Shown one piece after another: positions 10,564 to 27,102 of a stretch of 64,000 bases of DNA (positions are counted from its first letter, which is position 1; every line of letters begins with the position of its first letter). A model generated the notes under the pieces. It had not been told where the DNA came from. It did not search any database and saw nothing but the letters and a program-made list of their open reading frames with translations. The position numbers and the translations under genes are program-made. This DNA comes from Bacteroidales bacterium (GTDB lineage Bacteria > Bacteroidota > Bacteroidia > Bacteroidales > F082): the NCBI GenBank assembly GCA_016291135.1, contig JAEFAE010000003.1, positions 84,516-148,515 on the forward strand, written 5' to 3'.

Positions 10564-10568
10564 TAGCT

Positions 10569-13064
10569 ATGCCAGGCGTTTCACAAAATACAGGATCATC
10601 CTCAAGCGGCGGTGGAGGCAACAACAGCTCCTCCTCCGACTCCTCCGAAAAAGAGGTGAAGAAATGTATCGTGAGATTCTTCCCCTGTGATGGATGGAAA
10701 GGCGAGTACGGCTTTGACTGGTTCCGTACCGAAGACGACCCCATCCGCGAAGAAGTGGATGAGGAAGGGACCAAGGCATCCGCTTACTACGACTGTATCG
10801 GGAAATATACCGGCGGGAAGGTGCGGGATCTGGTCCTTACCTATGCCAAAGAAGGGGAGATTGTGGAACGCAAGTCCGAAACCCGCGACTCGGACGCCCT
10901 GGTCTTCAGCGAGGTTTCCAATGACGTCCATTTCGCCACCTATTACCTTGATAACTACAAACTGAGAATCCCGGTGGTGAAAGAAGGGGAGAAATATTAC
11001 TATTTTTACTATGTCCCGGAAAAGGGTGATGAGAAAGAAGTGCAGTTCAGATACAATCATTATGATAAGAAAAAGGAGCTGTACTATGATAGTTTTTTTG
11101 AGATCGAATACAAGGGCAAGTCGTTGAAAAAACTTACCCTAAAAACAACCAAAGAGGTAGAGAACTCAAAGGGCGAGTCCTATATGGTGGATTATATCGC
11201 GACTTTCGGACCGGGCGACAAACTCAAAGCGAAATCCAAAGAGATACAAAAAAGATACCATGCGGATTCCAAACTGATCGACCGGATTTACAATTGTGAG
11301 ATGATGTTTGAACAGTCCTTGAATGCCCATCCTAGTATTACCTATGTGAAGGTGACACCACACTCTTATAAGAAGTTGGAAGTGCATCTGAAGCATGGTG
11401 AAAAGACAGTCACGCAGACGTTCGAGTTCGAAAACCGCAAATTGTACTCCTTTTTGCAACGTACTGACGATGAGGCTGAGCATTCCGTTGACATCGTCGC
11501 TGGAATGGGCTATGACAGGGCCAAGAAAAAGGCAGAGAAAGAGGGGGTGGACGAAGGCCTGTTGGACCCGGATACCACGCTGGGTTATCTTCCCGATATT
11601 GACGGCGTGGTCTCTGGCATGATTACCATCCACAACGCGGAAGGACAGAAGGGCGACCTCAACGTGACCAAGGAAATGGTGGACGGTGAGGAAGTGCTCA
11701 CCGCTACCGTTGAGGGGGGAGGAGACGAGCAATACGTGTTGCATCCCTACTGGAAGGACTATTACAACGGAAGAGGCTTTACCTATAAATTGGATAGCGA
11801 CTCCCAACACCTCAGACATTACTATTTCTATCCCACCTTGAACCTGTCCTATTTCAAGGGGATGGGGGACTACTCCGAATTCAAGAAAGAGGCAAAAATC
11901 CAAGTCGTCATTGATGGCGAGTATGACGAGATTACGCTGGAACCCACGAACGACAATATCGAAGTCAGCCCGAAAACCCTCAAAGGCAATGGGACCGTGA
12001 CGGTGAAAGTGAAAGGGGATACCTACCAAGATGGTCAGAAATACACCTGGAGCGAACCTGAAATCAACGCTCTGTCGGAAGGTGTCATGGTGGGCAAATT
12101 GAAAATGATGGTGTTCAACGATTTCCCGGCGGAGGCGCTCAACAACTGTCTCGACATCGTCAATGTAGGCTTGAAAGCCAGTACCTATTCGTCGGAAGAG
12201 GACGGTATTCACATGAATCACGATCTGAAATGCCCCACCGAGGCCTCCCTGAAAACCCAACGAAGGTACAATCTCGATAACGAGCAGTTCAAGCAGCTGT
12301 TGGCGCAAGCAGGAGTGCGTTTCAAGGAAGTGACCACGGACAAAAACATTGCACTGGAGTATGAGATTGTTATGGAAGCCGAAGAAGGAGGGGTTTCGTC
12401 CTATGACATCAGTGCGACGGAGATGGATATGGTGACAGGAGTGGTTGTGCCTGAGGTGCCGTACCACTATTTGGATTTTGTACATAGTGCCAGAATGTTC
12501 GAGCGGTACAATATCCCCAATGAAAAGTTTGAAAACGCGAGGACTTTCTTTTCAGACGCGGTGGAAACCCAACAACGTCCTACCCTGAAGGAGTATATCG
12601 ACCGGCGCGTGGTCAGTGTGTTTTATACCATCGCCGATCATCTGAGGGTGTACCTGGTGGACCAGTTCCTGACGAATGATAAGGAAGGGAAGGACCACCG
12701 TTATTATGATGAATATACGGACCATCAACAAGAGAGTGCCCTGGTGTTTATCAAATCGGTGGATGCAAACAACCACGCGAAAAGCAATGTGGTTGCCCAC
12801 TCCATATTCAAAGCCATCAAGCTGAAGGATTTGTTCAACAACTACAACGATTTCACCTTCAAGACAGGCACTACCACCAACATCATGGACTCCAGCCAAA
12901 TTAGGTATTCCATGATGCCTTTCCAATGGGTTGATTTCCATTTGGCCGTGCTGAACGACTTCAAGTATGAGATCCCCGTGATGCGACGTGACCATACTTT
13001 GGCCATGATCGAAGAACATACTACCCCAACCGATGAAGAAGGAGATACCAATTTTTCACTATGA
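10569..13064 (+). CDS. Large soluble protein, candidate T6SS effector (no recognisable catalytic domain)
   Basis: 831-aa ORF with an N-terminal Gly/Ser-rich stretch (SSSSGGGGNNSSSSDSS) followed by CIVRFFPCDGWKGEYGFDWFR. No TM segment or signal peptide. The position in the variable region and the 4-nt ATGA overlap with a small downstream ORF fit an effector/immunity arrangement. The function is an inference. Confidence 0.4.
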   Translation: MPGVSQNTGSSSSGGGGNNSSSSDSSEKEVKKCIVRFFPCDGWKGEYGFDWFRTEDDPIREEVDEEGTKASAYYDCIGKYTGGKVRDLVLTYAKEGEIVERKSETRDSDALVFSEVSNDVHFATYYLDNYKLRIPVVKEGEKYYYFYYVPEKGDEKEVQFRYNHYDKKKELYYDSFFEIEYKGKSLKKLTLKTTKEVENSKGESYMVDYIATFGPGDKLKAKSKEIQKRYHADSKLIDRIYNCEMMFEQSLNAHPSITYVKVTPHSYKKLEVHLKHGEKTVTQTFEFENRKLYSFLQRTDDEAEHSVDIVAGMGYDRAKKKAEKEGVDEGLLDPDTTLGYLPDIDGVVSGMITIHNAEGQKGDLNVTKEMVDGEEVLTATVEGGGDEQYVLHPYWKDYYNGRGFTYKLDSDSQHLRHYYFYPTLNLSYFKGMGDYSEFKKEAKIQVVIDGEYDEITLEPTNDNIEVSPKTLKGNGTVTVKVKGDTYQDGQKYTWSEPEINALSEGVMVGKLKMMVFNDFPAEALNNCLDIVNVGLKASTYSSEEDGIHMNHDLKCPTEASLKTQRRYNLDNEQFKQLLAQAGVRFKEVTTDKNIALEYEIVMEAEEGGVSSYDISATEMDMVTGVVVPEVPYHYLDFVHSARMFERYNIPNEKFENARTFFSDAVETQQRPTLKEYIDRRVVSVFYTIADHLRVYLVDQFLTNDKEGKDHRYYDEYTDHQQESALVFIKSVDANNHAKSNVVAHSIFKAIKLKDLFNNYNDFTFKTGTTTNIMDSSQIRYSMMPFQWVDFHLAVLNDFKYEIPVMRRDHTLAMIEEHTTPTDEEGDTNFSL

Positions 13065-13561
13065 ACGGATTTGATGTTTTTACATACGAACAATACTTTG
13101 CCCAAGGCAAGTGCATGATACGGGAGGGTTCCAACGTCTTGTCGCTCTTCGAGACGAAAGACGCCTACGGGAAACTCATCATCCCGGATGACCCGGAGAT
13201 GGTATGCCAACAACTCATGTACGATCCCGAAACACTTACCCTGATTGAGGAGGGGACGTTTCTGAAAGACTTCAACATCCCCATCGGCGTGTGGAAAAAC
13301 TATGACCTGGAGGGCAATGTAATCGATGAGGAAGACATGGACAAGGACTATCCGGTCAAATGGAACGACCTGAAGGGAATCATGCTCGCCAATGACATCC
13401 ATCTCGATGACGTACAGGAACTGCTTCGGAAGCCCAATGCGGAAAAACAACCCGTCTGGATCCTCAAAATGAAGACCAAGCACGGGATCCGCGAGATCAT
13501 TACCGTCGATGCCGTGAACGGCGATATCATTGAAAGAAAGAAAACCAGTATCAAAGGCTAA
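13061..13561 (+). CDS. Small protein translationally coupled to the 831-aa ORF (candidate immunity or accessory protein)
   Basis: 166-aa ORF whose ATG overlaps the upstream stop (ATGA). No signal peptide. The C-terminal ...IREIITVDAVNGDIIERKK loosely resembles a PepSY-type ending. Confidence 0.4.
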   Translation: MNGFDVFTYEQYFAQGKCMIREGSNVLSLFETKDAYGKLIIPDDPEMVCQQLMYDPETLTLIEEGTFLKDFNIPIGVWKNYDLEGNVIDEEDMDKDYPVKWNDLKGIMLANDIHLDDVQELLRKPNAEKQPVWILKMKTKHGIREIITVDAVNGDIIERKKTSIKG

Positions 13562-13565
13562 AACG

Positions 13566-14054
13566 ATGAATTATATATTTAATAAAAAAGATCGGTTCTA
13601 CGACTATTTTCCCCATATTCCTCCTATGATGTTGAAGAGGGAATTCGGTATGGATTTTTTTGAGCAGACATTGTTCAAACAACAACTGCAACGCGTGATC
13701 GTTCAGGTTTATAAAAGGTTGATTGATGTGCATGACCTGAAACATGTGAACGTGTATCCTAAGATCGGGGATGAGTTTGACCGGAATTTTTATAACGAAC
13801 TGAAACAAAACGTGCAGTTGCAGCTGCGAAACACGAATTTCTGGGATATCCTGGACGATACTATCAAGAAAAAGGATTTTGAATCGGAACAAGATATGCA
13901 AAGTTTCCTGACACGAGTGTTGGCAATGATTGGCATCGGCATTTCAAGATATACGCATGGCTCTATCAAGAGAATTGCTTTCATCGCCCTGTTTAACCAT
14001 GATTTTGATAAACTCTCTGGACAAGAAATACTATATTTGTCGGAAATAAACTAG
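13566..14054 (+). CDS. Hypothetical protein, AT-rich orphan ORF
   Basis: 162 aa from the first ATG after the upstream stop (MNYIFNKKDRFY...). It is markedly AT-richer than its neighbours. No recognisable motifs. Confidence 0.45.
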   Translation: MNYIFNKKDRFYDYFPHIPPMMLKREFGMDFFEQTLFKQQLQRVIVQVYKRLIDVHDLKHVNVYPKIGDEFDRNFYNELKQNVQLQLRNTNFWDILDDTIKKKDFESEQDMQSFLTRVLAMIGIGISRYTHGSIKRIAFIALFNHDFDKLSGQEILYLSEIN

Positions 14055-14118: not shown

Positions 14119-15468
14119 ATGAAAAAGTTCTTCCTATTTGCAATGCTGCTGATGGCAACGGCTGCCATGAATGCAGCGACCACACCGAAAGCCATGCTCG
14201 ATGGGGATTCCACCTTCTACATCGAAATCGCGCCCCGCATTCCGCATGGAGTCGTCCTCACCGAACCGACGGAGTTCGCCATGGCCGGAGAGCGTGTATC
14301 TATTCTCGTCGATCCGGAAAACGGCTATCAGCTGCTGTGGGTCAGTGTGACCAAGCAGGGCGACCAGAGCCAGACCGTTCCGGTCAACAACATGGCCTTT
14401 ACGATGCCTCAGTTTAACGTCTATGTCGATGCGGCCTTTGGCGTGATTGGGAATGGTCCGGTCATCAATGGCCAGATTGCGGCCCCCGCGGCCATTTGTG
14501 CGGGAAGCGCCCTTGTCCTGACTCCGCCTGAGGTTACCGGTGCCACACAGACGCAGTGGCAAATCTCCTCGGACAAGAACTTCACCTCTTACGAGGTGTA
14601 TACCAACCAACCCCTCGGCCGCAGCTACAATGGGTGGAAGCTCCGTTTTATGGCTTCCAACAGCGCCGGTACGGTCTATAGCAACACGGTCACCATCACG
14701 GTCAACAACCTGGGTGACTTGAGCCTCACGGGTGACTTGAGTGCCTGTACCCGTCAGGAAAGCAACTATGCGGTTGCAGGTGCCAGCAACGTGACGTATT
14801 CTTGGGAAGTGACAGACGAAAACGCCACCATCGAGGGGACGGGCAAATCCGTCAAGATCCTGTGGGGTACTGCCGGACGCCAAGTGGTGACGGTCACCGT
14901 TGAGGATACCAAGATCGGTTGTAGCGAGACCCTCGAGATGCAGGTGGCCGTACAGTCGTTCATCAAGGATACCGACCTGAACAACATCGTGGCCAAGAAA
15001 CACGAAGGCAAGGAATACATCCTGATCTATCCCAACCCCAAGGATTCCCATTATCGCTACCAGTGGTTCAAGGACGGTGAACCGATCCAAGGTGCCACCG
15101 GTCAGTATTACTATCCGGAGCGCGGCTTGGAGGCGGGCGCCTACCAAGTCTATATCAGCTTCAATACCGACGACAACGGCAACCTGATTTGCGGTGCCTT
15201 CACTCCGGTGTTCAACCTGACTCCCGAGCGCTCGGCTTTCCAGATCCAACCCAACCCGTCGGAAACCGGCCAGGAGCTGATCCTTGAGGCCGACATCGAA
15301 GGGGAGGCCTTCTTCACGGTCTTCACCCTTGACGGCAGAATGGTCTTCCAACAGGCCGTTTCGGGTCAACAGCCCACCGTCCAGCTTAACCTGGCCAAGG
15401 GTCTCTATATCGGTCGTCTCAGCCAAGGGGACGCCTCCGAGCAAGTAGCCAAGATTGTCATTAGATAA
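14119..15468 (+). CDS. Secreted Ig-like repeat protein with a T9SS C-terminal sorting domain
   Basis: 449-aa ORF with a signal peptide (MKKFFLFAMLLMATAAMNAATT). The last ~75 aa (FQIQPNPSETGQELILEADIEGEAFFTVFTLDGRMVFQQAV...LAKGLYIGRLS...KIVIR) fit the Por/T9SS type A CTD pattern. Confidence 0.7.
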   Translation: MKKFFLFAMLLMATAAMNAATTPKAMLDGDSTFYIEIAPRIPHGVVLTEPTEFAMAGERVSILVDPENGYQLLWVSVTKQGDQSQTVPVNNMAFTMPQFNVYVDAAFGVIGNGPVINGQIAAPAAICAGSALVLTPPEVTGATQTQWQISSDKNFTSYEVYTNQPLGRSYNGWKLRFMASNSAGTVYSNTVTITVNNLGDLSLTGDLSACTRQESNYAVAGASNVTYSWEVTDENATIEGTGKSVKILWGTAGRQVVTVTVEDTKIGCSETLEMQVAVQSFIKDTDLNNIVAKKHEGKEYILIYPNPKDSHYRYQWFKDGEPIQGATGQYYYPERGLEAGAYQVYISFNTDDNGNLICGAFTPVFNLTPERSAFQIQPNPSETGQELILEADIEGEAFFTVFTLDGRMVFQQAVSGQQPTVQLNLAKGLYIGRLSQGDASEQVAKIVIR

Positions 15469-15511: not shown

Positions 15512-15826
15512 ATGGAAGATTTCTTTTTATTCTTGAGGTACAAGAACAAAACCATCAAGTTCAAAGTCACCGACCCCAACACGGATCTTGAAGTGCTGAT
15601 GACCAACCTTCGCAAGGCTGTTGACAACACGGGAACCCGTATCTTCGACCTGCCCGAGATGATCGACTATGTTCCTACCGAGTATTTCTTCGGCAAGAAG
15701 GACGAGACTACAGGCCGCGACATCATTTTGCAGCCCAAGATCGGCAAGACCAAGAAGACCTTGCTCGACTACAACGTCAAGCCGGGCGACACCCTCGAAA
15801 TCATCTCAGACCCCATCGCGGGTTAA
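15512..15826 (+). CDS. Ubiquitin-like (beta-grasp) protein ending in Gly-stop, copy 1
   Basis: 104-aa ORF ending ...GDTLEIISDPIAG followed directly by TAA. It lies immediately upstream of an E2-like gene and in the same operon as the E1, JAB and RING proteins. By my hand alignment it shares 61 of 104 identical residues with the equal-length paralog at 34097-34411. Confidence 0.7.
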   Translation: MEDFFLFLRYKNKTIKFKVTDPNTDLEVLMTNLRKAVDNTGTRIFDLPEMIDYVPTEYFFGKKDETTGRDIILQPKIGKTKKTLLDYNVKPGDTLEIISDPIAG

Positions 15827-15860: not shown

Positions 15861-16463
15861 ATGCAAATCATGGAATCAGCAAGGGAGATCGACCAGTACA
15901 AACAGAACCGCTATGTGGGACGGAACCGTCGTCTGATGCACGAATGGTCCGCCATCGACCAGCGTTTCAAGGACGATCCCGACATCAGCTACATCATCCG
16001 TAAACGCAATCCTGAGAACCTGCCCACCCAATATGAGATTGTCTTCAAGGTGAAGTCGTTCTGCAACATCGAGGAACCGGACGAGAACGGGCTCTGCAAG
16101 CCGGTGACGGCCGACGAGTTCCGCATGAAGATCACCATCCCGAACAACTATCCGGCGGTCGACAGCAAGCTGGAGTTCAAGTTCATCACCAAGGACGACC
16201 AGGGCAACGAGATCCCGCATCCTTGGCATCCCAACATCCGCTTCTACGGCGACTTTGCCGGTCGTGTGTGCCTCAACACGCCTGCCTGCGGTACCTTTAC
16301 CGACCTGGCATGGTATGTCGATCGCGTGATGTCTTATCTCAAATACGAGAAATACCACGCCTTGAACACGCCTCCCTTCCCGGAGGACAACAAAGTGGCC
16401 GAGTGGATCCTTGAACAGGCGGAACCCAACGGCTGGATTGAACAATTAAGAAACGAAAAATAA
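15861..16463 (+). CDS. UBC-fold E2-like ubiquitin-conjugating enzyme
   Basis: 200-aa ORF containing PWHPNIRFYGDFAGRVCLN. This is the HPN motif (16227-16235) followed by the candidate catalytic Cys (codon 16269-16271) at the spacing seen in eukaryotic E2s (HPN-x(n)-G-x-[IV]-C-L). Confidence 0.75.
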   Translation: MQIMESAREIDQYKQNRYVGRNRRLMHEWSAIDQRFKDDPDISYIIRKRNPENLPTQYEIVFKVKSFCNIEEPDENGLCKPVTADEFRMKITIPNNYPAVDSKLEFKFITKDDQGNEIPHPWHPNIRFYGDFAGRVCLNTPACGTFTDLAWYVDRVMSYLKYEKYHALNTPPFPEDNKVAEWILEQAEPNGWIEQLRNEK

Positions 16464-16470
16464 CAATGCC

Positions 16471-17649
16471 ATGAAAAAAATCGCTTTAATACTGATCGCT
16501 TTTCTGCTGCCTGCAATCGCATTTGCGCAGTATGAGGTAACCGTGTCCGACGAGGGCCCGACCGACTATACGCTTTCCATCCCGGGTTACAACGCCAAAA
16601 TCCCGGCAGCCACCATGCATATGCGGTTCGAATATGAACCCGAAACCGAAACGATCCTGATCCGCCTGGGCAGTGGCTCCGCTGCGCCCGACTACGACAA
16701 GATCTGGCTGCCTCAACATGAATTCACCTATAGCGAGATGGGTTCCTACATGAAGAACCGTGGGGTGAAGTTCAGAAAGGCAAGCACCCTGGTCGACCAG
16801 GAGAACTTCCTCAACCTTGAAAGCAGGACCATCGCCGCCTCCATCGATTGCCAAGGCATGACGTTCAACGGCAACTATGACCTGAAGTCCAAAAAGAGGG
16901 TGAAGAAGCAACTCGACTACCAGATGGTGCCGCTTGACGGAAAAATGGAACTGCAGCTCCGCTTCAAGGTGGCTCCGCGTACGAGCCTCATGAAGCTTAC
17001 GTTGCACAACCCCATGCCGATGAACCGTACCGGAAGCAAGGGGACGGTGGCATTTGTGGCCGATGACGTTACCATCAACATCAAGCTCGAACGTTGCGGA
17101 TCGGTGCAGGATCTGGTCCAAACCGCCCGCGAATATGAAGCCATGTTCCGTGTGGCCGAGGCTAAGATCGTGGATGAGCTGAAATACAGCCCCAATACCA
17201 AGAAGGCCTACCGTGACTTCTTCCTCAACATGATCGATGCCGTCGACATGGACCGTTTGGAGACGGCTTCCTGCGAAGAGGTGCGTGACAGCTATGACCA
17301 TATCCAGGACATGCTGAGCAAGATCAAGGGAGACAGCAAGCCCGATAACGGCGGAGGCGGAAAGGGAAACAGTGGAAACAGCGGCAACAGCGGCAACAGC
17401 GGCGCGGTCTCATGCGACGTGAACGCCCTCGATGCGGAAGTGAAATCCACCACCAGCAAGATCAACAACATCATCAACGAGTGGTCGTTGGCCGGCGATG
17501 CCGCTACCAAGAAGGAGAAAAAAGCGGCCTTCGACGCGGTGGTCAAGGCTTTTGATGCCAAGCTGAACAGCCTTCCTGCAGGTTGCAAGGACAAGCTCAA
17601 CGCCAAGCAGCTGAAAAAGTATGAACAAGCCAAGAAACTGATAAAATAA
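16471..17649 (+). CDS. Periplasmic or secreted protein, T6SS-module component of unknown function
   Basis: 392-aa ORF with a Sec signal peptide (MKKIALILIAFLLPAIAFAQ, no lipobox Cys). It has a Gly/Ser/Asn linker and a Lys-rich helical C-terminal domain. It is paralogous to 28931-30082; both share the C-terminal ...KK.AFD.VVK..DAK.N.L...C..KL....LK.YE.AKKLIK. Confidence 0.6.
   Translation: MKKIALILIAFLLPAIAFAQYEVTVSDEGPTDYTLSIPGYNAKIPAATMHMRFEYEPETETILIRLGSGSAAPDYDKIWLPQHEFTYSEMGSYMKNRGVKFRKASTLVDQENFLNLESRTIAASIDCQGMTFNGNYDLKSKKRVKKQLDYQMVPLDGKMELQLRFKVAPRTSLMKLTLHNPMPMNRTGSKGTVAFVADDVTINIKLERCGSVQDLVQTAREYEAMFRVAEAKIVDELKYSPNTKKAYRDFFLNMIDAVDMDRLETASCEEVRDSYDHIQDMLSKIKGDSKPDNGGGGKGNSGNSGNSGNSGAVSCDVNALDAEVKSTTSKINNIINEWSLAGDAATKKEKKAAFDAVVKAFDAKLNSLPAGCKDKLNAKQLKKYEQAKKLIK
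17365..17403 (+). repeat. In-frame 9-nt tandem repeat encoding (GNS)4G
   Basis: GGAAACAGT GGAAACAGC GGCAACAGC GGCAACAGC GGC, inside the linker of the 392-aa periplasmic protein. Confidence 0.85.
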
Positions 17650-17655
17650 TCTGTC

Positions 17656-18432
17656 ATGAACCGACTATTCCGTGGATGTTTTTTGCTGGCGCTGCTGATT
17701 CTGCTGGCTCCGGTACGGCTGTGGGCCCAGGATGAGGAGATGGCCGAATTCGTCAGGGGCGAACTGGACACCTATTATCGGGAGCTGGTCAAGCTCGACA
17801 AGCAGATTGTGACCGCCGAGGATGCGGAGCGGTATGAGACCCGCGTCAAGAACCATCTTAGACTGGTGGAATCGTGCTACAGCGACTACAGCGAAGTCAT
17901 CCGTTACGACAAGAAGCTCTACTCCTTATATGAGAAATACACCGACTATCACCAGGAACTGGAAAGAAGGATGGAATCCCTGAAGGAGGAGCAGGCGCGG
18001 CAAGAGAAATACGACAAGGTCAACACGAAGCTGAACCGTTACATGGTGACCCTTGCCGAGCTCGAAGAGGCCGGAAACCGTTGCGTCGCCAACAAACGCC
18101 TCGACTCGCTCAACATTATCAAGAAGCAGGCCGAGGAATGCTATGTGGACGAAGCCATGGTGGACTATGGCGCCAACCGCGACTTCATCGAAGAGGACGA
18201 GGACCTTGCCTTGTTGTGGAAAAAACTCAAGGAAACCTATGGGCGCATCTCAAACATGCAGATTGTCAAGACGTCGATTGACATGGTCACGATTCTTGAG
18301 ATCGTTGGCATTGTCGCAGCCGTTGTCCTCATCTTTACGATGATCTCCGGTAAGATCAAGGCGGCCAAGCTCACCAAACCGCAAAAAGAGAAGAAACCCA
18401 AGAAACAAGAAGAAGACATCCCTTCAATCTGA
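17656..18432 (+). CDS. Bitopic coiled-coil protein: signal peptide, periplasmic coiled coil, C-terminal TM and Lys-rich tail
   Basis: 258-aa ORF. N-terminal signal is MNRLFRGCFLLALLILLAPVRLWAQ. It has long heptad-like charged segments, the TM helix MVTILEIVGIVAAVVLIFTMISG, and the tail KIKAAKLTKPQKEKKPKKQEEDIPSI. Paralog at 34431-35189. Confidence 0.6.
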   Translation: MNRLFRGCFLLALLILLAPVRLWAQDEEMAEFVRGELDTYYRELVKLDKQIVTAEDAERYETRVKNHLRLVESCYSDYSEVIRYDKKLYSLYEKYTDYHQELERRMESLKEEQARQEKYDKVNTKLNRYMVTLAELEEAGNRCVANKRLDSLNIIKKQAEECYVDEAMVDYGANRDFIEEDEDLALLWKKLKETYGRISNMQIVKTSIDMVTILEIVGIVAAVVLIFTMISGKIKAAKLTKPQKEKKPKKQEEDIPSI

Positions 18433-18437
18433 GTATT

Positions 18438-20018
18438 ATGAAACGAAGAATCATTACCATACTAAGCCTGATTTTGGTGTGCTTCGCGGGTGTTATGGCC
18501 CAGCAGCCGACGGCCACTTTCGACGGCAACAAGCTGAGCATCGTGGTGCCCGAAGGGTATCTGGAGTTGGAGCGCAGCGCGATTGCCAATGCGGCGGTTC
18601 GTGACTGCATCAAATGGGAGGACGAAACCGCTTTCTTCATGTCGCAACCCGAACCTTACCTGCTTTATCCCGAGGGGCTCGCTGCCAACGAACCGCTGCA
18701 AATCGAAGGCAAGTTTAACGGTGAGCCGATCACCCTGCAGGTGGAGATGAAGGAACCCGCCCCGCAAAAGCCCGTCGATCCCGAAGGGGGAGATCCCTCC
18801 AAACGGAACCTGTTCCTGTATGGCGGACTGGGCCTGTTGGTGTTGGTGCTACTGACATTGGTGTTGCTCTTGCTGCGCAAGAAGAAAACCAACAAGGAAC
18901 CGGAGAAACCTTTCGATCCCAGCGTCATCTCGGTCATCACCGACGAATCGGTCCAATACGAACATGGGTTGAAACATGTCAAGGAGCATTTGGCGGACTA
19001 CCTCGTGTTCGACATGGACATGGTCTATGCCGACACGGCAGTCAACAAGGTGTATTTCAGCACCGCCCTCATCAAGAAGCTCTACGATTTCTTCAACAAC
19101 TCGCTGGAAACCGATGGACGCACCAACGAGACGGGCTGCTTCATCTTGGGTTGTTGGGATCGGGAGCCGGGCAATGCCGGCCGCTACGACATCAGCCTTG
19201 AGTACATGGTGGAGCCCGGCGATGACGCCGACTTTGGCGAATACAGCCTGAACTTCGGCAAGAAGATCAGCATCAACATGGCCTCGGTGATTGCCAACCT
19301 GGGCGAGAAGTCGAAACGCGACTATGTGCTCACCTGTTGGATGCACTCGCACCCCGGACTGGGGCTCTTCCTCTCGAACCAGGACCTCATCGTCCAGAAG
19401 CAGCTGACCTATTCCGATCACCGCAACCGCTTGTTGGCGCTCGTCATCGACACCAACACGCCCAAGCTGAAGCTGGGATTCTTCACGGCTCAAGCCCATG
19501 GCGAAATGAACAACAAGGAAGCGGTGAAGCGCTGGTTCTCCTTCGAGGAGATCAACCGTCAGGCCCGCGACATGAACCGAAACCATGCCCCCAAGGAAGA
19601 CCTGCTGTCGGAGTTTGTGGCCGATGCCGATTACTATACCCTCGACCTGAACGATTCCGAGCTTCCTCATCTCGGCCTGGCCGCCCATTGCATCAACCAG
19701 ATCGACAATGCCATCTATTCCTGCAACAAGGGAATTGTGGGTTACTTCTTCGGTGAGGAGGAGAACGGCTATCTCAAGGTGGGTTGCTGCCTGCCGTATG
19801 AGAACGAGGAACGGGTGGGTTGCCTGATCTACGGCGACGACCTCGATCGGGCCAAGTTGGTTGCCTATGCCTCGGACCTTGCCGGATGCCGGTTCTTCCT
19901 CAACTGCACCTCCGACGACAAGGCACACGTATGGTCTCGCAAGGGAGACGCTTTCGAGCCGGTTTGCGACACCACATTGACACAAATGAAAGAATGGATT
20001 AGAAGAAAACGCGTTTAA
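18438..20018 (+). CDS. Membrane-anchored JAB/MPN (JAMM) metallopeptidase, candidate deconjugating or processing enzyme
   Basis: 526-aa ORF with a signal peptide, ~130 aa periplasmic segment and the TM LFLYGGLGLLVLVLLTLVLLLL. The cytoplasmic domain has an upstream Glu (NETGCFILG) and an intact JAMM motif WMHSHPGLGLFLSNQD (H-x-H-x7-S-x2-D, 19344-19385). Confidence 0.75.
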   Translation: MKRRIITILSLILVCFAGVMAQQPTATFDGNKLSIVVPEGYLELERSAIANAAVRDCIKWEDETAFFMSQPEPYLLYPEGLAANEPLQIEGKFNGEPITLQVEMKEPAPQKPVDPEGGDPSKRNLFLYGGLGLLVLVLLTLVLLLLRKKKTNKEPEKPFDPSVISVITDESVQYEHGLKHVKEHLADYLVFDMDMVYADTAVNKVYFSTALIKKLYDFFNNSLETDGRTNETGCFILGCWDREPGNAGRYDISLEYMVEPGDDADFGEYSLNFGKKISINMASVIANLGEKSKRDYVLTCWMHSHPGLGLFLSNQDLIVQKQLTYSDHRNRLLALVIDTNTPKLKLGFFTAQAHGEMNNKEAVKRWFSFEEINRQARDMNRNHAPKEDLLSEFVADADYYTLDLNDSELPHLGLAAHCINQIDNAIYSCNKGIVGYFFGEEENGYLKVGCCLPYENEERVGCLIYGDDLDRAKLVAYASDLAGCRFFLNCTSDDKAHVWSRKGDAFEPVCDTTLTQMKEWIRRKRV

Positions 20019-20027
20019 TTGTTTGAT

Positions 20028-22379
20028 ATGAAACGACTGTCATTATTAACCCTATTACTCATATTTTTGTTCCAGTCCGCCAGGGCACAGGTGGGCATGG
20101 AATTCGGTCCTGTTGAATCCGACAACATGACCCGTTTCGTCGATTTCAAGATGATGAAAGACGGCAACAAAGTGCCTTATTTCGGCCTGACGGCCGACGA
20201 CTGCCGCTGTTTCGAGCTTGTGAACGGCGATACCGTGGTGCTGTATGTGGACAGCCTGGTGGACATCAGCAGCCGCAAGCTGGTCTCCAAGAACCTGACC
20301 ATCGTCATCCTGGCCGACCAGGGCATGATGCTCAGCGATGCCGACTACCTGAAACTGAAGGAAGCCATCGTGTCGTTTGTGGACGCCTTGCCGGAGTACG
20401 TCAAGGTATACATCGCCATGATGGGAACCGACGTCACCGAAACCGAGCGCGTCTATCCCGGCGAAAGCATCCGCTCGTACGTGCGTCGCGACGAGCTGGT
20501 GGAGCAGTCGGACGAGGAGAAGTCGATCTATGCCGCCATCATCTCCAAAATCCAGGAGATTGCCAACCTCGACGAGGACGACTGCTTCTACTCGGATGTG
20601 CCGCACAACCGTGAACTGACGGCCGATACGGAGTCGGACAAGATCCTCTTTGTGCTTTCGGGCGCGGTGGACGAGGATGAGGACGAGGATTTCTATCGCG
20701 ACAAGCTCCTCTTCAACAACCCCGACTATCTGGAGATCCCCGACCAGCTCAAGGCCATCTACTGCATCTATTTCGGCGATGAGCTGGAAGAGGACATGGC
20801 CAATGAGTTCAAGTTCATCTGCCATCGTACCCCCGAAGGCAAGTTCTATCCCCACTATGCGGTCGATTCGTTGAAATACATGCTGTTGGGTGCCATCGAC
20901 TCCATCGCCATGGACTACCGTATGTATTACACAGTGGGAGAGAAGGTGACCTATAACGGCCAACCCTTGGCCCTGTTCCTCGACATCGACCGCGCCAAGG
21001 CCCATGGCGAGAAGAACTATTCGTTCGGCTCCACGCTGGCCCCGATCACCCTGGCTCCTGCCGAGGCAGCTGGTGGCAAGGGCGGGTATTCCGTGCTGCT
21101 GTTCGGACTCCTGCTGGGCATCGCCTTCATCGCCTTGGCCTATCTGGTCATGCAGTATCTCGTGCCCTGGCTCCAATACCAGCTCTTCAAGAAGAAATAC
21201 GTCAAGAAGTTCAGCCCCAACGCCATCCAGAAAGATGGCAAGGATGTGGTGCTGCAACAGTGCTACTATTGCAAGGACGACTTCCAAGAAGGCGACATGA
21301 TCGTCACCAAATGCAAGCATACCGTCCACTGGGAGTGCTGGGAGGAAAACCATGACCGTTGCCCTGAATATGGCCTCAACAGTTGCAAGGAAGGCATCTA
21401 CTTCTATAATCGCAACCACCTGGCCGACCCGCGCAATTCGCCGTATTTCACCTCATGGCTGATCTACGGCCTGGCCGGCGGCCTCATATCCTGGCTGTTG
21501 TTCAAGCTGATACCCACCATCCCGTTCTTCGGAAAGCTGATCACTTGGATCGTCAGCCTGTTCCATGGGGAGAACACCCCGAACGTGGCCCCCGAGTTTG
21601 TCCAGAAGATTGCTCCTCTATTGATGTGCGGCCTGATCCTGGGCTTTGTGATCACTTTCCTGTTCAGCTTCCTGATCGATTTCCGCAGAAAGACCGCGAA
21701 GACCATCTTGCTCATGGTGGCTCGCGCCTTTGGCAACGCCATCATCGGTTTCCTCGCTTTCCTGCTGGGTGCGGTGGTCATCATCGCCTTGGGCAAGTCG
21801 AGCAACTGCTGGTGGATCGACTGGGTGCCGTGGCTCTTCTTTGGCTGTGCCATCCCGTGGCTGCTCTCGTTCAAGACCGACATCAAGTTCAAGGAAGCCT
21901 TCCTGGGTGGCTTGATCTCCGTGGTGTTGAGCTTTGTGGCCGTTTACGGACTGGGTTCCTCGGTGCCGGTGATGGGTTTGTTCGCCTTCATGATCTACGC
22001 GGCCGGTCTGGGTGCCTCGATCGCGGTGGTCCACTATACTTCGGAGAACTACTACCTCCATATCGAAGGCCCGACCAAGGAACGCGACATCGCCATCTAC
22101 AAATGGATGAACGTGGCGGGTGGATCCAACCATGTCACCATCGGCCGCTCGCCAAACTGTGTCATTGAGATGAACTGGGATCCGAGCGAAGAGATCCGCG
22201 ACAAGCAGGTGGAGCTGTACATCGACAACGACCATCCGTACTGCCGCGCCTTGACCGAAGGCACCACCTTCGGCAACGAGCAGCGGGTGCTCAAGGAGGG
22301 TGACTCGATCCTCTTGGTCCATGGCAGCTGTTTCACCGTGGGCAATACGAAATTCACTTATATTGAAAAAGATAAATAA
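20028..22379 (+). CDS. Polytopic membrane protein: periplasmic vWA-like domain, cytoplasmic RING-H2-like zinc finger, 6 further TM helices, C-terminal FHA-like domain (E3 candidate), copy 1
   Basis: 783 aa from the ATG at 20028; the track ORF begins at an upstream TTG. Signal peptide is MKRLSLLTLLLIFLFQSARAQ. The segment LTIVILADQG...KILFVLSGAVDED has a vWA-like pattern without a MIDAS motif. TM1 is YSVLLFGLLLGIAFIALAYLV. Eight metal ligands lie at 21261-21396: C-x2-C-x13-C-x-H-x2-H-x2-C-x7-C-x7-C (CYYCKDDFQEGDMIVTKCKHTVHWECWEENHDRCPEYGLNSC). About six more hydrophobic helices follow. The C-terminus VTIGRSPNCVIEM...LLVHGSCFTVGNTKFTY is FHA-like, with the GR present but no obvious S-x-x-H. Confidence 0.65.
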   Translation: MKRLSLLTLLLIFLFQSARAQVGMEFGPVESDNMTRFVDFKMMKDGNKVPYFGLTADDCRCFELVNGDTVVLYVDSLVDISSRKLVSKNLTIVILADQGMMLSDADYLKLKEAIVSFVDALPEYVKVYIAMMGTDVTETERVYPGESIRSYVRRDELVEQSDEEKSIYAAIISKIQEIANLDEDDCFYSDVPHNRELTADTESDKILFVLSGAVDEDEDEDFYRDKLLFNNPDYLEIPDQLKAIYCIYFGDELEEDMANEFKFICHRTPEGKFYPHYAVDSLKYMLLGAIDSIAMDYRMYYTVGEKVTYNGQPLALFLDIDRAKAHGEKNYSFGSTLAPITLAPAEAAGGKGGYSVLLFGLLLGIAFIALAYLVMQYLVPWLQYQLFKKKYVKKFSPNAIQKDGKDVVLQQCYYCKDDFQEGDMIVTKCKHTVHWECWEENHDRCPEYGLNSCKEGIYFYNRNHLADPRNSPYFTSWLIYGLAGGLISWLLFKLIPTIPFFGKLITWIVSLFHGENTPNVAPEFVQKIAPLLMCGLILGFVITFLFSFLIDFRRKTAKTILLMVARAFGNAIIGFLAFLLGAVVIIALGKSSNCWWIDWVPWLFFGCAIPWLLSFKTDIKFKEAFLGGLISVVLSFVAVYGLGSSVPVMGLFAFMIYAAGLGASIAVVHYTSENYYLHIEGPTKERDIAIYKWMNVAGGSNHVTIGRSPNCVIEMNWDPSEEIRDKQVELYIDNDHPYCRALTEGTTFGNEQRVLKEGDSILLVHGSCFTVGNTKFTYIEKDK

Positions 22380-22396
22380 TTGAAAATCAATATATT

Positions 22397-23692
22397 ATGA
22401 AAAAGTTATTTCTTATCCTAACGATGACGGGCCTCGCCATGACGGCCATGGCCCAGTCCCAACTTTCGACGGTCCGTGGCAAGACCAAGGACGGAAAGAA
22501 CCTCAAGGTCCAGTACTACAAGGGGACGGTCGAAGACGTGATCCAGTCCGTCAGCTACGATTTGGTGGACGAACTTCAGGCCAAGTCCAACAAACTCCAG
22601 GCAGACCTGGATGCGGCCAAAAAGGAGATCAAGAACCTGCAGGCAAGCGGCGGTGGGGCAGACGCTAACGAGTTGAAGAACCTCCGCAAGAAGGTGAAAG
22701 ACTACGAGAAGGAGAATGCCACCCTGACCAAGCAAATCAAAGAATTGAAAAATCAACTGGGCGGAGACGTGGTTGAGCCGTCCTCCGACAACGACCAGGC
22801 CGTGGCCGAAGCCCAGCGTCAGGTCGCCGAAAAGGACAAGGCCATTGCCGAGCTCAATACCGTGTTGGATGCCTGCAATGCCAAGGTCAAGGACATGGAA
22901 CGGCAGATTGGCGAGCTGAAAGGCGCCGTCCGTCCGCCCGCGAGTCCGGTGATCGGCGCCACCTTCGGGATGGGGCCTGCCTTCATCGGCAAGAGCACGC
23001 CGGACTATTGGGCCAAAAACGTGAAGCCGGCCATCTTGTTCGAGGTCTATTACGGCACGGGCAACCTGACCCCGAGCTTCCCGCTTTCGGTGGAGGCTGG
23101 ATTGGGCTTCCGCAACTTCAAGATGTCCGCTACATTGCCTGAATACACCACCGTCATCACGGGTGACGACAACGACGGCGATCCCTTCAAGGCCCACTAC
23201 AGCTTCAACAACCTGGAGGAGCGCTTGGGATTGACCTACCTTGACATTCCGGTGCGTGTGTGTGTGTCGCAACCCCTCAAGGACCGTGTCACGGTCTATG
23301 CCAAGGCGGGCTTGACCCCCTCCATCAAGGTGGGATCCAACTTCAACGGCAGCGGCACCTACAGCCTGTTCGGTTATTATCCGCAATGGGATGTCAACCT
23401 TCAGGACATTGAACCCCTTGGCTTTGGAGAGGACCTCGAGTGCTACGACGGTTTTACGCCTGAAGTGAAGTCCTTCGTCCTTTGGGGCAACCTCGCCTTT
23501 GGGGCCTACGTGCCGTTCAATGGCAGCCCCATCGAGCTGAATGCCGGCGTGAAGTTCGACTTCCCGTTGACTTCGTTCGGAACCGCCGCTACGGGCGACT
23601 TCATCCCGGGTACCCATGCCGCGGTGCTCGGCAACGGAGGCAAGGCCACCATTATGAGTCTGCAACTCGGCGTCGTTTACAACTTGAAATAA
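22397..23692 (+). CDS. Outer-membrane beta-barrel protein with an N-terminal periplasmic coiled coil
   Basis: 431-aa ORF with a signal peptide (MKKLFLILTMTGLAMTAMAQ). About 150 aa are coiled coil (KLQADLDAAKKEIKNLQ...KQIKELKNQL...). The C-terminal half has alternating-hydrophobic strands, including the LTYLDIPVRV motif typical of small Bacteroidota porin-family barrels. Confidence 0.55.
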   Translation: MKKLFLILTMTGLAMTAMAQSQLSTVRGKTKDGKNLKVQYYKGTVEDVIQSVSYDLVDELQAKSNKLQADLDAAKKEIKNLQASGGGADANELKNLRKKVKDYEKENATLTKQIKELKNQLGGDVVEPSSDNDQAVAEAQRQVAEKDKAIAELNTVLDACNAKVKDMERQIGELKGAVRPPASPVIGATFGMGPAFIGKSTPDYWAKNVKPAILFEVYYGTGNLTPSFPLSVEAGLGFRNFKMSATLPEYTTVITGDDNDGDPFKAHYSFNNLEERLGLTYLDIPVRVCVSQPLKDRVTVYAKAGLTPSIKVGSNFNGSGTYSLFGYYPQWDVNLQDIEPLGFGEDLECYDGFTPEVKSFVLWGNLAFGAYVPFNGSPIELNAGVKFDFPLTSFGTAATGDFIPGTHAAVLGNGGKATIMSLQLGVVYNLK

Positions 23693-24917: not shown

Positions 24918-25691
24918 ATGTCTTATTTTGACCAAAACAGCCTTCAACAAGAGCTTTGCGCCGAACAGGTGCTTGCGGTGCATTTCCCCGACATCAAGGA
25001 GTGGACGGCCAACTATGGCAGCTTCTTCTCGAGGAACTACACGGGCGACTTGAAGGAATGTAACCCCAGGGATAAAAAGGTTTCCCTCTCCCGGAACGGC
25101 ATCTACGACATCCTTCCCGAGAAGATGTTCTTCGACCCTAACGAGTTGCGGAACAAGGAAAGCCGGGCCTTTGCACAACGGGTGGCCGAACTCTATGAGG
25201 AGGAAAGGAACATCCAGAAATATTTCCAGCCTTTCGACTCTTATTTCTTTAACCGGTCGCTAAACATCCGCTTGAATGTCAATAGGTTGGTGGACGATAA
25301 GGTCGAGATGATGCTCCGGCTGCTTTTCGACTACGACCTTCATGCGGAGAAGAATCCCTATATCCGCCTGCTGGCGCCTATGTTGCTTCAAGTAACCGAG
25401 TTGCGGTCCGACTTCGACCGGCTGTCGACGATGCTCGCCGCTATCATCGATTGTCGCGTGGACTACAAGATGCCGACCCAGGACCGTGTGCTCTTTACGG
25501 TGCATAAGTTGCAACTGAACAGCCGTGAGTACGCCGATTTCATGTTGCTGTTGAAGCCGTTGTTCGACTTTGTACAAGAGTGGTTCGTCCCCATGGAGAT
25601 GGACTGCGGCTATCAGGTGAAAGACTATCAGCAGCCTTTCGTGCTTTCCGACGATCGGGCTTTGGTATTGGACTACAACACACAGATTTGA
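24918..25691 (+). CDS. Conserved T6SS-module protein, positional candidate for TssG
   Basis: 257-aa ORF paralogous to 37547-38329 (HFPDIKEWTANYGSFFSRNYTGD... versus HYPFQREWIAHHKGIFTRNYADD...). It directly precedes the TssK-like, TssE and TssF genes in both modules. No other TssG candidate is present, and I recognise no TssG motif. Confidence 0.35.
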   Translation: MSYFDQNSLQQELCAEQVLAVHFPDIKEWTANYGSFFSRNYTGDLKECNPRDKKVSLSRNGIYDILPEKMFFDPNELRNKESRAFAQRVAELYEEERNIQKYFQPFDSYFFNRSLNIRLNVNRLVDDKVEMMLRLLFDYDLHAEKNPYIRLLAPMLLQVTELRSDFDRLSTMLAAIIDCRVDYKMPTQDRVLFTVHKLQLNSREYADFMLLLKPLFDFVQEWFVPMEMDCGYQVKDYQQPFVLSDDRALVLDYNTQI

Positions 25692-25715: not shown

Positions 25716-26603
25716 ATGAATACAGATATCAGAATTGATTGGCGGTCGGGCATGGAGATCACTCCACAGACCTTTATCGACATGGAGAACAACATTTCAG
25801 AGAACCGCTTGCTGGTTCGCAAGATGATTGCCGCCAAGTCGTTCGGCGTCATCCCCAGAACGAAGTTCTCCATCAGCCATGAGCTGCTTAACGGAAGTCT
25901 GGTCCTCAAGCAGATCACCTGCGACGTGTTGCTGCCTGCCGGTCAGGTGGCCGTGGTGGAGACCAAGGCGCCCATCACCCTGGCCATCCCCGACAAGGAA
26001 GCCGATGAGCTCTACCTCACCCTAGAGGTGGGCGACCATCTCGTCACCTTTGAACGGGACGGCGTGCCGCATGTGGTCAACGAATACAAGTTCGACTTCA
26101 AGGCGCTTCCCGATGTGAGGACCCAGCAGCCGTTGCTCAAACTGGTCCGTGCCAACGAGGCTTGGACTGTTTATGAGAACTATGTCCCTCCGGTCATGAC
26201 GGTCAGGACTTCCGTGCCGTTGCTTGAGAAGCTCGACGCCTTGAAGCAATCGGCCGACAAGATCGTTACCCACGAACATGCCGACCTGATGGAAGACCCG
26301 GTGCTGGTGATGTTGCTCATCGACCAGCTGATGACCTTCTCGGCCGACGACTCCTCACGTGAGTTGGTGCTGCTGTGCAAGCGTATCGCCACGGCCTTGA
26401 GCTATGCCGTCATGAAACACAAGGTGGAGTTGCCCGCACCCAATATCATGGATGTGGAACCGTATCTGAATGCGTTCCAGCATTTTTTGGCCGACATCGC
26501 CGTCGCCATGAACGACCTGCAACCCAAGGTAGTGGAAGTGAAGGCCCCGGAACCCGAACCGGAACCGGAACCCGAACCGGATGAGTGGCTCCCGATGATT
26601 TAA
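25716..26603 (+). CDS. tssK: Short TssK-like baseplate protein with an acidic (PE)n tail
   Basis: 295-aa ORF. The N-terminus IRIDWRSGMEITPQTFIDMENNISENRLLVRKM resembles the TssK start (V.WsEGmfL.PQHFQQ.drY...). It is about 150 aa shorter than canonical TssK and ends EVKAPEPEPEPEPEPDEWLPMI. Confidence 0.5.
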   Translation: MNTDIRIDWRSGMEITPQTFIDMENNISENRLLVRKMIAAKSFGVIPRTKFSISHELLNGSLVLKQITCDVLLPAGQVAVVETKAPITLAIPDKEADELYLTLEVGDHLVTFERDGVPHVVNEYKFDFKALPDVRTQQPLLKLVRANEAWTVYENYVPPVMTVRTSVPLLEKLDALKQSADKIVTHEHADLMEDPVLVMLLIDQLMTFSADDSSRELVLLCKRIATALSYAVMKHKVELPAPNIMDVEPYLNAFQHFLADIAVAMNDLQPKVVEVKAPEPEPEPEPEPDEWLPMI

Positions 26604-26622: not shown

Positions 26623-27102
26623 ATGTTCATCAGAAACCCTTTGCAACTGCGTTATCCCATTGTGGATCTAGACGGTAGCCAACTGAAAGGCTCTATCGAC
26701 GCCTTCTTGCGCCTGCTGATCGCCTCCAACAAGTACGACAGCATCGCCGATCAGGAGTTCGGATTCTGTCTGGAGGACTTCCGTTTCGAAGGCTTCAGTT
26801 CGGAACGGGCTGAGTTTTTGGAGCGGAAGACCGTGCCGCGAGACCGGTCGGAGAATACCGAATTGGCTGAGATCCGCAGTCCGTTGTATTCCAAAAGACT
26901 CGTCGGAAACAGCAAAAACGCCGACACGTTTGCCCGTGAATTGAAAAAGAGCATCGAGCGTTATGAACGAAGGCTCCGCGAGGTACAGGTGAACACGGAC
27001 TTCCAGAAAAACGGCCGGATCCTCCACATCATCGTGACCGGGAAGATCAACAATGCCGCCAATACCCTTTATTTTAACGAGTTTAATGTTGATGTTTGGT
27101 AA
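26623..27102 (+). CDS. tssE: Baseplate wedge protein TssE (gp25-like), copy 1
   Basis: 159-aa ORF directly upstream of tssF. It has a gp25/GPW-like start (LKGSIDAFLRLLIASNKYDSIADQEFGFCLEDFRFE). Paralog at 39230-39691. Confidence 0.6.
   Translation: MFIRNPLQLRYPIVDLDGSQLKGSIDAFLRLLIASNKYDSIADQEFGFCLEDFRFEGFSSERAEFLERKTVPRDRSENTELAEIRSPLYSKRLVGNSKNADTFARELKKSIERYERRLREVQVNTDFQKNGRILHIIVTGKINNAANTLYFNEFNVDVW

Follow-up and report, generated by a model that had tools for sequence, protein, structure and literature searches.

A divergent T6SSiii-type locus of uncultured Bacteroidales with a built-in ubiquitin-like conjugation cassette and without known membrane-anchor genes in cis

To our knowledge, every type VI secretion system (T6SS) studied depends on a dedicated complex in the envelope, which is TssJLM or TssNQOPR. 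In the T6SSiii systems of the Bacteroidota, this membrane complex is formed by TssN, TssQ, TssO, TssP and TssR (Bongiovanni et al. 2024, PMC10781749), and a 2024 survey of complete Bacteroidota genomes reported this set, complete or in part, for all T6SSiii systems (PMC10781749). TssN is a protein of five transmembrane helices (TMHs) with a cytoplasmic beta-grasp domain, and in canonical loci tssN is encoded between tssK and tssG (PMC10781749). Here we describe a T6SS locus from a Bacteroidales bacterium (contig JAEFAE010000003.1). The window that we analysed is a stretch of 64 kb of this genome, and statements on the whole window cover this stretch. The locus is a T6SSiii variant without the known anchor genes and with a built-in cassette for conjugation of a ubiquitin-like protein (Ubl), and as such it is a new T6SS variant.

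The locus forms one long single-strand gene array (296-41340) with intergenic gaps of mostly 0-60 bp. Its first part runs in the order ClpV, putative TssB, TssC, two Hcp, VgrG, a DUF4280/PAAR-like protein, four unassigned proteins, a PKD protein, Ubl, an E2-like protein, five envelope proteins, E1, TssG, TssK, TssE and TssF (Table 1). The T6SSiii core set is complete (TssC/TssD, VgrG, PAAR-like, ClpV and TssE/F/G/K), with a divergent TssC, which has only ~36% identity to canonical T6SSiii TssC, and a truncated TssK. A sequence-only reading of the same DNA had listed sheath, tube, spike, ClpV and baseplate genes, and our searches bear this list out, TssC being identified by PF17541, while the open reading frame (ORF) at the TssB position matches no model. 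Judged from its sequence, the locus is a divergent T6SSiii-type system of uncultured gut and rumen Bacteroidales.

The sequence-only reading had seen nothing resembling TssJ, TssL or TssM and could not tell whether distant TssN-R homologues were present. Profile searches found no homologue of either set in the 64-kb window. The Pfam models of TssN (PF17555), TssO and TssR, which recovered a Bacteroides locus used as positive control at 3e-67, 6.5e-27 and 3.5e-42, respectively, gave no match among the window genes (E <= 0.1 or 0.01). The Pfam families of TssJ, TssL (DotU) and TssM (IcmF), models that were run without a positive control, also gave none among the window genes. We built custom hidden Markov models (HMMs) from canonical TssN/O/Q/P/R and ran them on all six-frame ORFs of the window and of 20 related loci (related loci are labelled L001-L030). 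The canonical reference loci came from plasmid records searched by tblastn with TssC, and belong to Bacteroides finegoldii, Hymenobacter, Tenacibaculum, Capnocytophaga and Bernardetia. The best match of these HMMs in any T6SS-linked locus had E = 0.07, and the best for TssN was 1.9; TssK/G/F/E HMMs from the same source genomes recovered their counterparts at 1e-7 to 1e-33. The only significant match of a custom anchor HMM, that of TssP to a PKD-repeat protein in the T6SS-free locus L021 (1.7e-25), reflects the PKD domain. When the five envelope families or the Ubl were compared with TssN/O/Q/P/R by hhalign, the probability did not exceed 2.2%, as against 96.5-98.9% for the baseplate families. 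NCBIfam gave no match even to TssC or Hcp of the locus, and its silence on TssN-R is therefore uninformative.

The same result was observed component by component. The gap between tssK and tssG holds no tssN, as the two genes are 24 bp apart in the first module (A) and overlap by 4 bp in a second one (B, described below); in the related loci they are likewise adjacent without tssN between them. For TssO/TssQ, the model PF17561, which matches the canonical proteins, found nothing in the window, and hhalign gave at most 1.7% probability. TssR, a lipoprotein composed of a TssR barrel, a vWA and C-terminal domains (PF17643, PF20780-2), was not matched in the window by Pfam, custom HMM or hhalign; the vWA fold is present, but in a 7-TM RING protein and not in a TssR-type lipoprotein. 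The only PKD protein that could be compared with TssP (N-terminal TMH plus PKD) is that at 14119-15468; it was not matched by the TssP HMM, differs from TssP in having a signal peptide and a sorting domain of the type IX secretion system (T9SS), and is missing from L002. We also considered a 'split TssN', in which the Ubl would stand for the cytoplasmic domain of TssN; as this comparison gave 0.1% probability, the idea has no support from sequence.

The five envelope ORFs lie on the + strand at 16471-23692, with gaps of 0-17 bp and with the architectures that had been described from sequence. Prediction of signal peptides and transmembrane (TM) topology supports an envelope location for all five, and together their predicted locations span the outer membrane (OM), the periplasm, the inner membrane and the cytoplasm. 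Besides these five, the envelope proteins of the locus are only two downstream paralogues, a second RING protein and the T9SS-exported PKD protein. The first of the five, g392, starts with a signal peptide, is otherwise free of hydrophobic segments and carries no lipobox Cys. Cys residues are conserved in its family, and it found no match in Pfam, NCBIfam or PDB. A similarity of its C-terminus to TolA, obtained with the single sequence (E = 3e-4), was gone with the family profile and was treated as compositional. In g258, residues 27-205 contain no proline and give a heptad signal in a crude test; the TM segment (212-230) is followed by a Lys-rich cytoplasmic tail that ends in ...EEDIPSI-COOH. 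The third protein, g526, has a signal peptide, a periplasmic N-domain of ~100 aa, one TM helix (127-145) and an intact JAMM motif, HSHPGLGLFLSNQD; by sequence, the PDB entries closest to it are Rpn11-like and CSN5 proteins (E = 5.8e-5).

The fourth protein, g786, matches Pfam zf-RING_2, FHA and VWA_3, all weakly. Its AlphaFold2 (AF2) model (mean pLDDT 76.7) shows, in this order, a signal peptide, a beta-sandwich, a vWA domain (93-294), TM1, the RING, a six-helix TM bundle and an FHA-like beta domain. The Cys/His ligands of the RING-H2 are invariant, and the vWA was confirmed by Foldseek. By the positive-inside rule, the protein has seven TM helices, with the RING and FHA-like domains in the cytoplasm and the beta-sandwich and vWA in the periplasm. 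The domains and topology read earlier from sequence therefore stand for this protein, with two reservations: the vWA has no DxSxS metal-ion-dependent adhesion site (MIDAS) motif, and the FHA-like domain is without phosphothreonine-binding residues, a point to which we return. The best structural match of the periplasmic beta-sandwich and vWA is archaeal ArnB (8s05, 5a8j). The partner of ArnB is ArnA, a zinc-ribbon and FHA protein; the domain types of this pair (vWA, zinc-binding domain and FHA) are joined in one polypeptide in g786. The last protein, g431, has a signal peptide, helices at 55-174 and a beta-barrel at 185-431 (AF2, barrel pLDDT ~90). Its best Foldseek matches are all OM barrels (NalP, OmpA, a Dot/Icm porin and OpcA; E = 1e-5 to 5e-4), its Pfam matches (OMP_b-brl and OMP_b-brl_2) are weak, and at least 147 homologue clusters were found. 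On the modelled structure, with a signal peptide, a closed barrel and OMP-like neighbours, g431 is a predicted OM beta-barrel protein.

The genes of the Ubl cassette flank and include these envelope genes. In the alignment of the Ubl family the terminal Gly is invariant, and Pfam ubiquitin is matched by 5 of 11 members and YukD by 4 of 11. Two Ubl relatives carry a short extension past the terminal Gly, which fits processing by the JAB protein. In L001, the Ubl ends in AGGLK and not in a free AG, which implies processing, and two tandem E2-like paralogues (197 and 200 aa) are found at 5001-6300. In the E2-like protein, the HPN...C motif, 'HPNIRFYGDFAGRVCL', is seen in the sequence, and for E2 homologues in L021, L024 and L028 UQ_con is on record. 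By these sequence features, the cassette is a complete prokaryotic one with a RING E3, comprising Ubl-Gly, ThiF E1, HPN/Cys E2, RING and JAMM. It lies within a tightly spaced same-strand array, consistent with one operon. PADLOC matched no defence system model, and reported only a generic E1 (shared with CBASS E1-E2 models) and coiled-coil similarity.

Downstream of tssF, the locus continues with module B (28931-41340). Copies A and B, at 25-59% identity, exist of Ubl, g392, g258, RING-TM, TssG/K/E/F, VgrG and PAAR; the window has one copy only of E1, E2, JAB, the OM barrel, the sheath and ClpV. The module B proteins of the window share 55-92% identity with their B-type orthologues in L010 and L013, and we therefore concluded that the module duplication is old and maintained. 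L010, and probably L013, likewise have the two modules in tandem. Fusion of a g258-like protein to RING-TM occurs in L010 and in three separate clusters at 50% identity (ORFs of 1015-1100 aa; L010 17424-20486, and P0180, P0202 and P0261). In the L010 fusion, the stop codon, ribosome-binding site and start codon are gone, and what was the signal peptide persists as a hydrophobic helix, in topological agreement with a TM helix in the fused protein.

In the same clade, the baseplate protein TssK differs from its canonical counterparts. It has 295 aa in module A and 288-320 aa in the clade, whereas canonical TssK has 359-391 aa, and its alignment covers only columns 8-273 of the 386 in the canonical family. 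From its sequence, the clade TssK is without the C-terminal domain and carries an (EP)n spacer and a P-x-I motif in its place. Among the 89 full-length TssK clusters of the clade, the C-terminus is P-x-[ILV]-COOH in 88 and the (EP)n spacer is present in 78; the canonical TssK proteins (n = 5) have neither. The cytoplasmic tail of g258 ends in a motif of the same type, and the two ends change in step by lineage: ...WLPMI in TssK and ...DIPSI in the g258 family in module A, ...DCPIL and ...DTPVL in module B, ...RRDIKI and ...RKKIKI in L023, ...FTPRI and ...DLDRI in L024, and ...FMPLI and ...DIPTI in L025. The g258-RING fusion proteins keep the tail motif directly ahead of the next TM helix. For two of the g258-type proteins, L023_6390 and L024_6548, the architecture is the same (signal peptide, C-terminal TM, Lys-rich tail and motif) but homology to g258 could not be demonstrated.

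The association of these genes is conserved. A scan of genome contigs by TssF patterns gave 13 close relatives and no canonical T6SSiii locus; these relatives come from 13 GTDB species genomes, all metagenome-assembled genomes (MAGs) of ruminant, horse or other gut origin, including Candidatus Limimorpha, and most have the same gene order in the stretch examined. The RING 7-TM protein has ~55 close clusters, all of uncultured Bacteroidales, and 260 full-length-type representatives at E <= 1e-30 in a full HMMER scan. The set g392-g258-JAB-RING-OMP-E1-TssG-K-E-F, or variants of it, was found in L001-L015, L023-L025, L029 and L030, and that exact order is kept in L001-L011, L014 and L015. The distant relatives (L023, L024, L025, L029 and L030; 26-31% identity, with the order sometimes rearranged) also join Ubl, E2, RING-TM and E1 with TssG/K/E/F or PAAR, and encode two proteins with a signal peptide, one of ~390 aa and one of ~280 aa that also has a C-terminal TM. 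The cassette stays linked to the T6SS over identities from 93% to ~25% and despite rearrangements.

The sequence-only reading had held that all five envelope proteins form the anchor. Co-duplication, the fusions and the co-variation of the TssK and g258 tails argue for g392, g258 and the RING 7-TM protein, which likely form a three-protein inner-membrane platform. For JAB and the OM barrel the claim is too strong, as neither was detected in the examined stretches of several related loci or in module B. The reading that we favour, and to which we give an even chance, is that TssNQOPR has been replaced in cis by this platform, which would dock the headless TssK and be controlled by the Ubl. The membrane-bound Ubl cassette is integrated in the operon, with spike genes on one side and baseplate genes on the other; in this proposal, g392, g258 and the 7-TM vWA/RING/FHA-like protein would assemble physically into an inner-membrane and periplasmic platform for baseplate docking. 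The docking contact would be made by the C-terminal acidic-Phi-P-x-I motif of TssK, which is also present on the cytoplasmic tail of g258, and g431, with its coiled coil, may provide the OM link where it is present. E1, E2, RING and JAB would write and erase a Ubl mark whose targets we infer to be the platform or the baseplate. This mark may control assembly or turnover, by analogy with phosphorylation by PpkA, Fha1 and PppA in T6SSi; the role of Ubl conjugation is probably regulatory, the direction of the regulation being part of the proposal.

A more specific version of the same proposal, which we regard as unlikely, is that the Ubl is ligated to the Lys-rich tail of g258, to RING-TM or to TssK and so builds the anchor on demand, and that JAB dismantles it. 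The Ubl would then make a membrane-bound beta-grasp docking site, of the kind that is built into TssN in canonical T6SSiii, and its removal by the membrane JAB would release or recycle the baseplate. Each spike/baseplate module, having its own Ubl, g392, g258 and RING, could in this version define one of two orthogonal firing sites that draw on one sheath pool.

Several observations weigh against the proposed platform and its Ubl control. Neither JAB nor the OM barrel was detected in the examined stretches of L012, L024, L025 and L030, and both are missing from module B. Distant relatives of RING-TM (E ~1e-65) occur in T6SS-free E1-Ubl-E2-JAB-RING cassettes (L021, L027 and L028, with no T6SS genes in view). 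The FHA-like domain has TIGSSPNC and KQVE as consensus instead of the GR and SxxH phosphothreonine-binding residues. As the examination covered 64 kb, TssN-R or another anchor could also be encoded elsewhere in the genome. Because T6SS-free cassettes exist, we take RING and JAB as a recruited membrane Ubl-conjugation system and not as original, dedicated structural parts of the T6SS, and the earlier notion of the Ubl machinery (JAB, RING) as physically part of the anchor is not supported in that form. Regulation of the PpkA/Fha/PppA kind fits the two proteins at least as well. The RING 7-TM cassettes without T6SS genes lie at 4926-13325 in L021, at 1548-18543 in L028, and in L027. One such cassette has an Ion_trans channel gene behind it on a plasmid-like contig (Rep3, ParA, KilA-N), another is followed by SrfB and Virul_Fac genes, and one has three consecutive JAB-domain proteins.

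The main rival to the favoured reading is a purely regulatory trans-envelope module; a cargo role, hidden homology and a hitchhiking defence system are less likely. T6SSi has a threonine-phosphorylation pathway, TagQRST-PpkA-Fha1-PppA, with an inner-membrane writer that carries a periplasmic vWA, an FHA domain and an eraser. As its counterpart, the present module would use reversible Ubl conjugation (RING as writer, JAB as eraser) to turn the T6SS on or off when it senses a signal from the envelope or periplasm, and the machine would be anchored otherwise or without a dedicated anchor. We consider this possible, though clearly less probable than the platform. It agrees with the fact that writer and eraser are both TM-anchored with periplasmic domains, that the periplasmic vWA on the writer resembles that of PpkA and an FHA-like domain is present, that JAB and the OM barrel are variably present, and that a T6SS-free cassette stands beside effector-like genes (ion channel, SrfB/Virul_Fac), as would a general signalling or conflict module. 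However, it leaves the T6SS without a cis-encoded anchor, and it explains neither the headless TssK, nor the joint duplication of g392, g258 and RING-TM, but not of E1/E2/JAB, with the spike and baseplate, nor the co-variation of the TssK and g258 tails.

It is quite unlikely that the Ubl acts on cargo, either by conjugation to spike, effector or immunity proteins to serve their loading or quality control, or as a delivered protein itself. The position of the Ubl gene directly 3' of the PAAR gene in module B and in L012, and the existence of a separate Ubl paralogue for each spike module, would suit such a role; the Ubl nevertheless always stands beside E2, g392, g258 and RING, whatever the effector genes, the enzymes are membrane-anchored, and the missing anchor and the TssK tail would be left unexplained.

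Very unlikely, in our view, is that some or all of the five proteins are TssN/O/P/Q/R homologues that have diverged past detection, for example with g258 as TssO/Q, the RING-TM bundle as TssN and its vWA as the TssR vWA. Sequence searches often fail to find TssO and TssQ, small helical proteins that evolve fast (PMC10781749), the TssR vWA matches PDB 5BV8, which is also matched by the g786 vWA (5bv8, rank 21), and the best off-diagonal hhalign score was that of g786 against TssN, over 192 TM columns. But this score amounts to just 2.2% probability over hydrophobic helices, and we rejected it as a TM helix match, whereas the baseplate proteins of the same loci were recovered at 96-99% probability. 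The topology of g258, with a cleavable signal peptide and a C-terminal TM, is opposite to that of TssO/TssQ, which like TssP have an N-terminal TMH; TssR is a lipoprotein, whereas the vWA here lies within a 7-TM protein; and the vWA fold is widespread.

Finally, that an unrelated mobile defence or conflict system was inserted by chance into a T6SS operon is hardly credible: such cassettes are mobile, one was found on a plasmid-like contig and the E1 adenylation domain is common to CBASS E1-E2 models, but the linkage and gene order outlast the sequence divergence and the rearrangements described above, the cassette lies inside the operon-like array, parts of it are co-duplicated with the baseplate, and no PADLOC system model was matched.

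Table 1. Features of the T6SS locus, with positions counted from the first letter of the window
Feature	Coordinates	Strand	Evidence or remark
ClpV-type AAA+ ATPase (sheath recycling)	296-2791	+	Pfam AAA_2 4.7e-57, AAA_lid_9, ClpB_D2-small
Putative TssB	2900-3361	+	assigned by position only; no model matched
TssC, T6SSiii type	3427-4797	+	PF17541, 3.2e-102
Two Hcp genes, T6SSiii type	4857-5249, 5329-5817	+	PF17642 TssD, 2.9e-27
VgrG-A	5845-8229	+	Phage_base_V, Phage_GPD
DUF4280/PAAR-like protein	8243-9406	+	Pfam DUF4280
Ubl-A, ubiquitin/YukD-like beta-grasp, 104 aa, end ...DPIAG-COOH	15512-15826	+	family alignment, Pfam
E2-like conjugating enzyme	15861-16463	+	weak UQ_con 0.0034
g392, periplasmic protein, orphan family	16471-17649	+	signal peptide only
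g258, coiled-coil TM protein	17656-18432	+	signal peptide, periplasmic helices, C-terminal TM, Lys-rich tail
g526, JAB/JAMM deubiquitinase-like peptidase	18438-20018	+	JAMM motif; PDB matches
g786, RING-A 7-TM protein	20019-22379 (likely start ATG 20028)	+	Pfam, AF2, Foldseek
g431, OM beta-barrel with N-terminal coiled coil of ~120 aa	22397-23692	+	AF2, Foldseek
E1-like adenylating enzyme, ThiF family, 402 aa	23701-24909	+	ThiF 3.2e-53
Baseplate A TssG	24918-25691	+	hhalign vs canonical T6SSiii family, 98.9% probability
Baseplate A headless TssK, end (EP)n-DEWLPMI	25716-26603	+	hhalign, 98.2% probability
Baseplate A TssE	26623-27102	+	hhalign, 96.5% probability
Baseplate A TssF	27118-28872	+	hhalign, 97.8% probability
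g383, g392 paralogue, periplasmic part of module B	28931-30082	+	28% identity to g392
Module B spike/tube: Hcp fusion, VgrG-B, DUF4280/PAAR-B	30142-34034	+	
Ubl-B	34097-34411	+	59% identity to Ubl-A
g252, coiled-coil TM protein, tail ...DDTPVL	34431-35189	+	25% identity to g258
RING-B 7-TM protein	35199-37547	+	33% identity to RING-A; Prok-RING_1 8.1e-5
Baseplate B: TssG, headless TssK (tail ...DDCPIL), TssE, TssF	37547-41340	+	

Other genes in and around the array were also noted. Between the PAAR gene and the PKD gene (9364-14054) lie four unassigned genes (399, 831, 166 and 174 aa), which are kept in L002 but not in L001 and are likely effector, adaptor or immunity genes; the 831-aa protein is rich in Gly/Ser/Asn at its N-terminal start. 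The PKD protein (14119-15468), just upstream of the Ubl, combines PKD-like domains with a signal peptide and, at its C-terminus, a T9SS sorting domain (Por_Secre_tail). A longer homologue is found at the same place in L001 and L023, with none in L002, and the protein may be T9SS-exported to the surface and work with the T6SS. Module B is headed by a gene (30142-31302) for a protein of 386 aa in which an Hcp (TssD) domain is followed by a C-terminal extension of ~250 aa, probably an Hcp-effector or minor-Hcp fusion. A BadF/NagK-like ATPase gene (41327-42202) overlaps the end of tssF-B by 14 bp and also lies directly 3' of tssF in L003 and L004; though consistently adjacent, it is probably an unrelated housekeeping gene. 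In the distant T6SS-linked loci L023 (19318-19902) and L024 (15189-15896), an M23 peptidase gene is directly 3' of tssF, and in the T6SS-free cassette of L021 one (3278-4651) adjoins the E1 gene; this peptidase could be a peptidoglycan hydrolase aiding insertion of the envelope complex.

If the proposed platform is real, the same machine would have a third way of being anchored, independent of the other two, and this would be the first secretion system with a complete E1/E2/RING-E3/deubiquitinase Ubl pathway in its operon. Bacterial Ubl conjugation would then have, beyond phage defence, a concrete physiological target open to genetic tests. A simple handle on baseplate docking is offered by the headless TssK through its EP spacer and P-x-I tail, and the two co-duplicated sets of spike, baseplate and platform suggest two cargo-specific firing sites served by one sheath. 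In the searchable literature, which did not reach Burroughs 2011 and 2012, we found no publication linking a T6SS to an E1/E2/RING/JAB cassette.

Among the described systems, prokaryotic operons of RING/E1/E2/JAB/Ubl type (Pfam Prok-RING_1) were reportedly described by Burroughs, Iyer and Aravind in 2011. These operons are said to have a TM RING protein, a YukD/ubiquitin-like Ubl with a C-terminal Gly, a ThiF E1, an HPN E2 and a JAMM protein, as seen here, and L021 and L028 resemble such a cassette alone. The present cassette differs in being embedded in a T6SS together with g392-like and g258-like proteins and an OM barrel. Bacterial E1/E2/JAB/Ubl conjugation is also shared with Bil and with Cap2/Cap3 of CBASS (cyclic-oligonucleotide-based antiphage signalling systems; PMC10557695), but those are without RING, membrane anchoring or T6SS context. 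The closest precedent in function is YukD, a Ubl controlling assembly of the core complex in the secretion system of type VIIb (T7SSb; Oka et al. 2025, PMC12637312). In YukD/T7SSb, as in the beta-grasp domains of EccD and TssN, a ubiquitin-like beta-grasp is tied genetically to the membrane complex of a contact-dependent secretion system. YukD, as far as we know, has no accompanying E1 or E2 and acts non-covalently, whereas here a full conjugation/deconjugation set accompanies a Ubl with a free terminal Gly.

The phosphorylation pathway of T6SSi is similar in having an inner-membrane vWA writer, an FHA-type domain, a dedicated eraser and periplasmic/OM accessories, all encoded in the T6SS locus. 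It differs in that Ubl conjugation takes the place of phosphorylation here, that the FHA-like domain lacks the phosphothreonine-binding residues, and that the T6SSi pathway coexists with TssJLM whereas no other anchor is encoded in this locus; Pfam scans of the operon found no kinase or phosphatase domain that could correspond to the Hanks kinase PpkA or the PP2C phosphatase PppA. A further comparison is with TssNQOPR. The phylum is the same, TssC/TssD are of T6SSiii type and TssK/G/E/F are homologous; the envelope genes occur only inside the T6SS locus, beside tssK/tssG; and both sets have a vWA in the periplasm, helical periplasmic proteins of elongated shape, and a multi-TM protein whose docking domain is cytoplasmic. 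The differences are that no sequence or profile homology was found, that the topologies are other ones and no tssN stands between tssK and tssG, that TssK is without its C-terminal part, that the OM component is a beta-barrel and not a lipoprotein, and that an E1/E2/RING/JAB/Ubl set is integrated in the locus.

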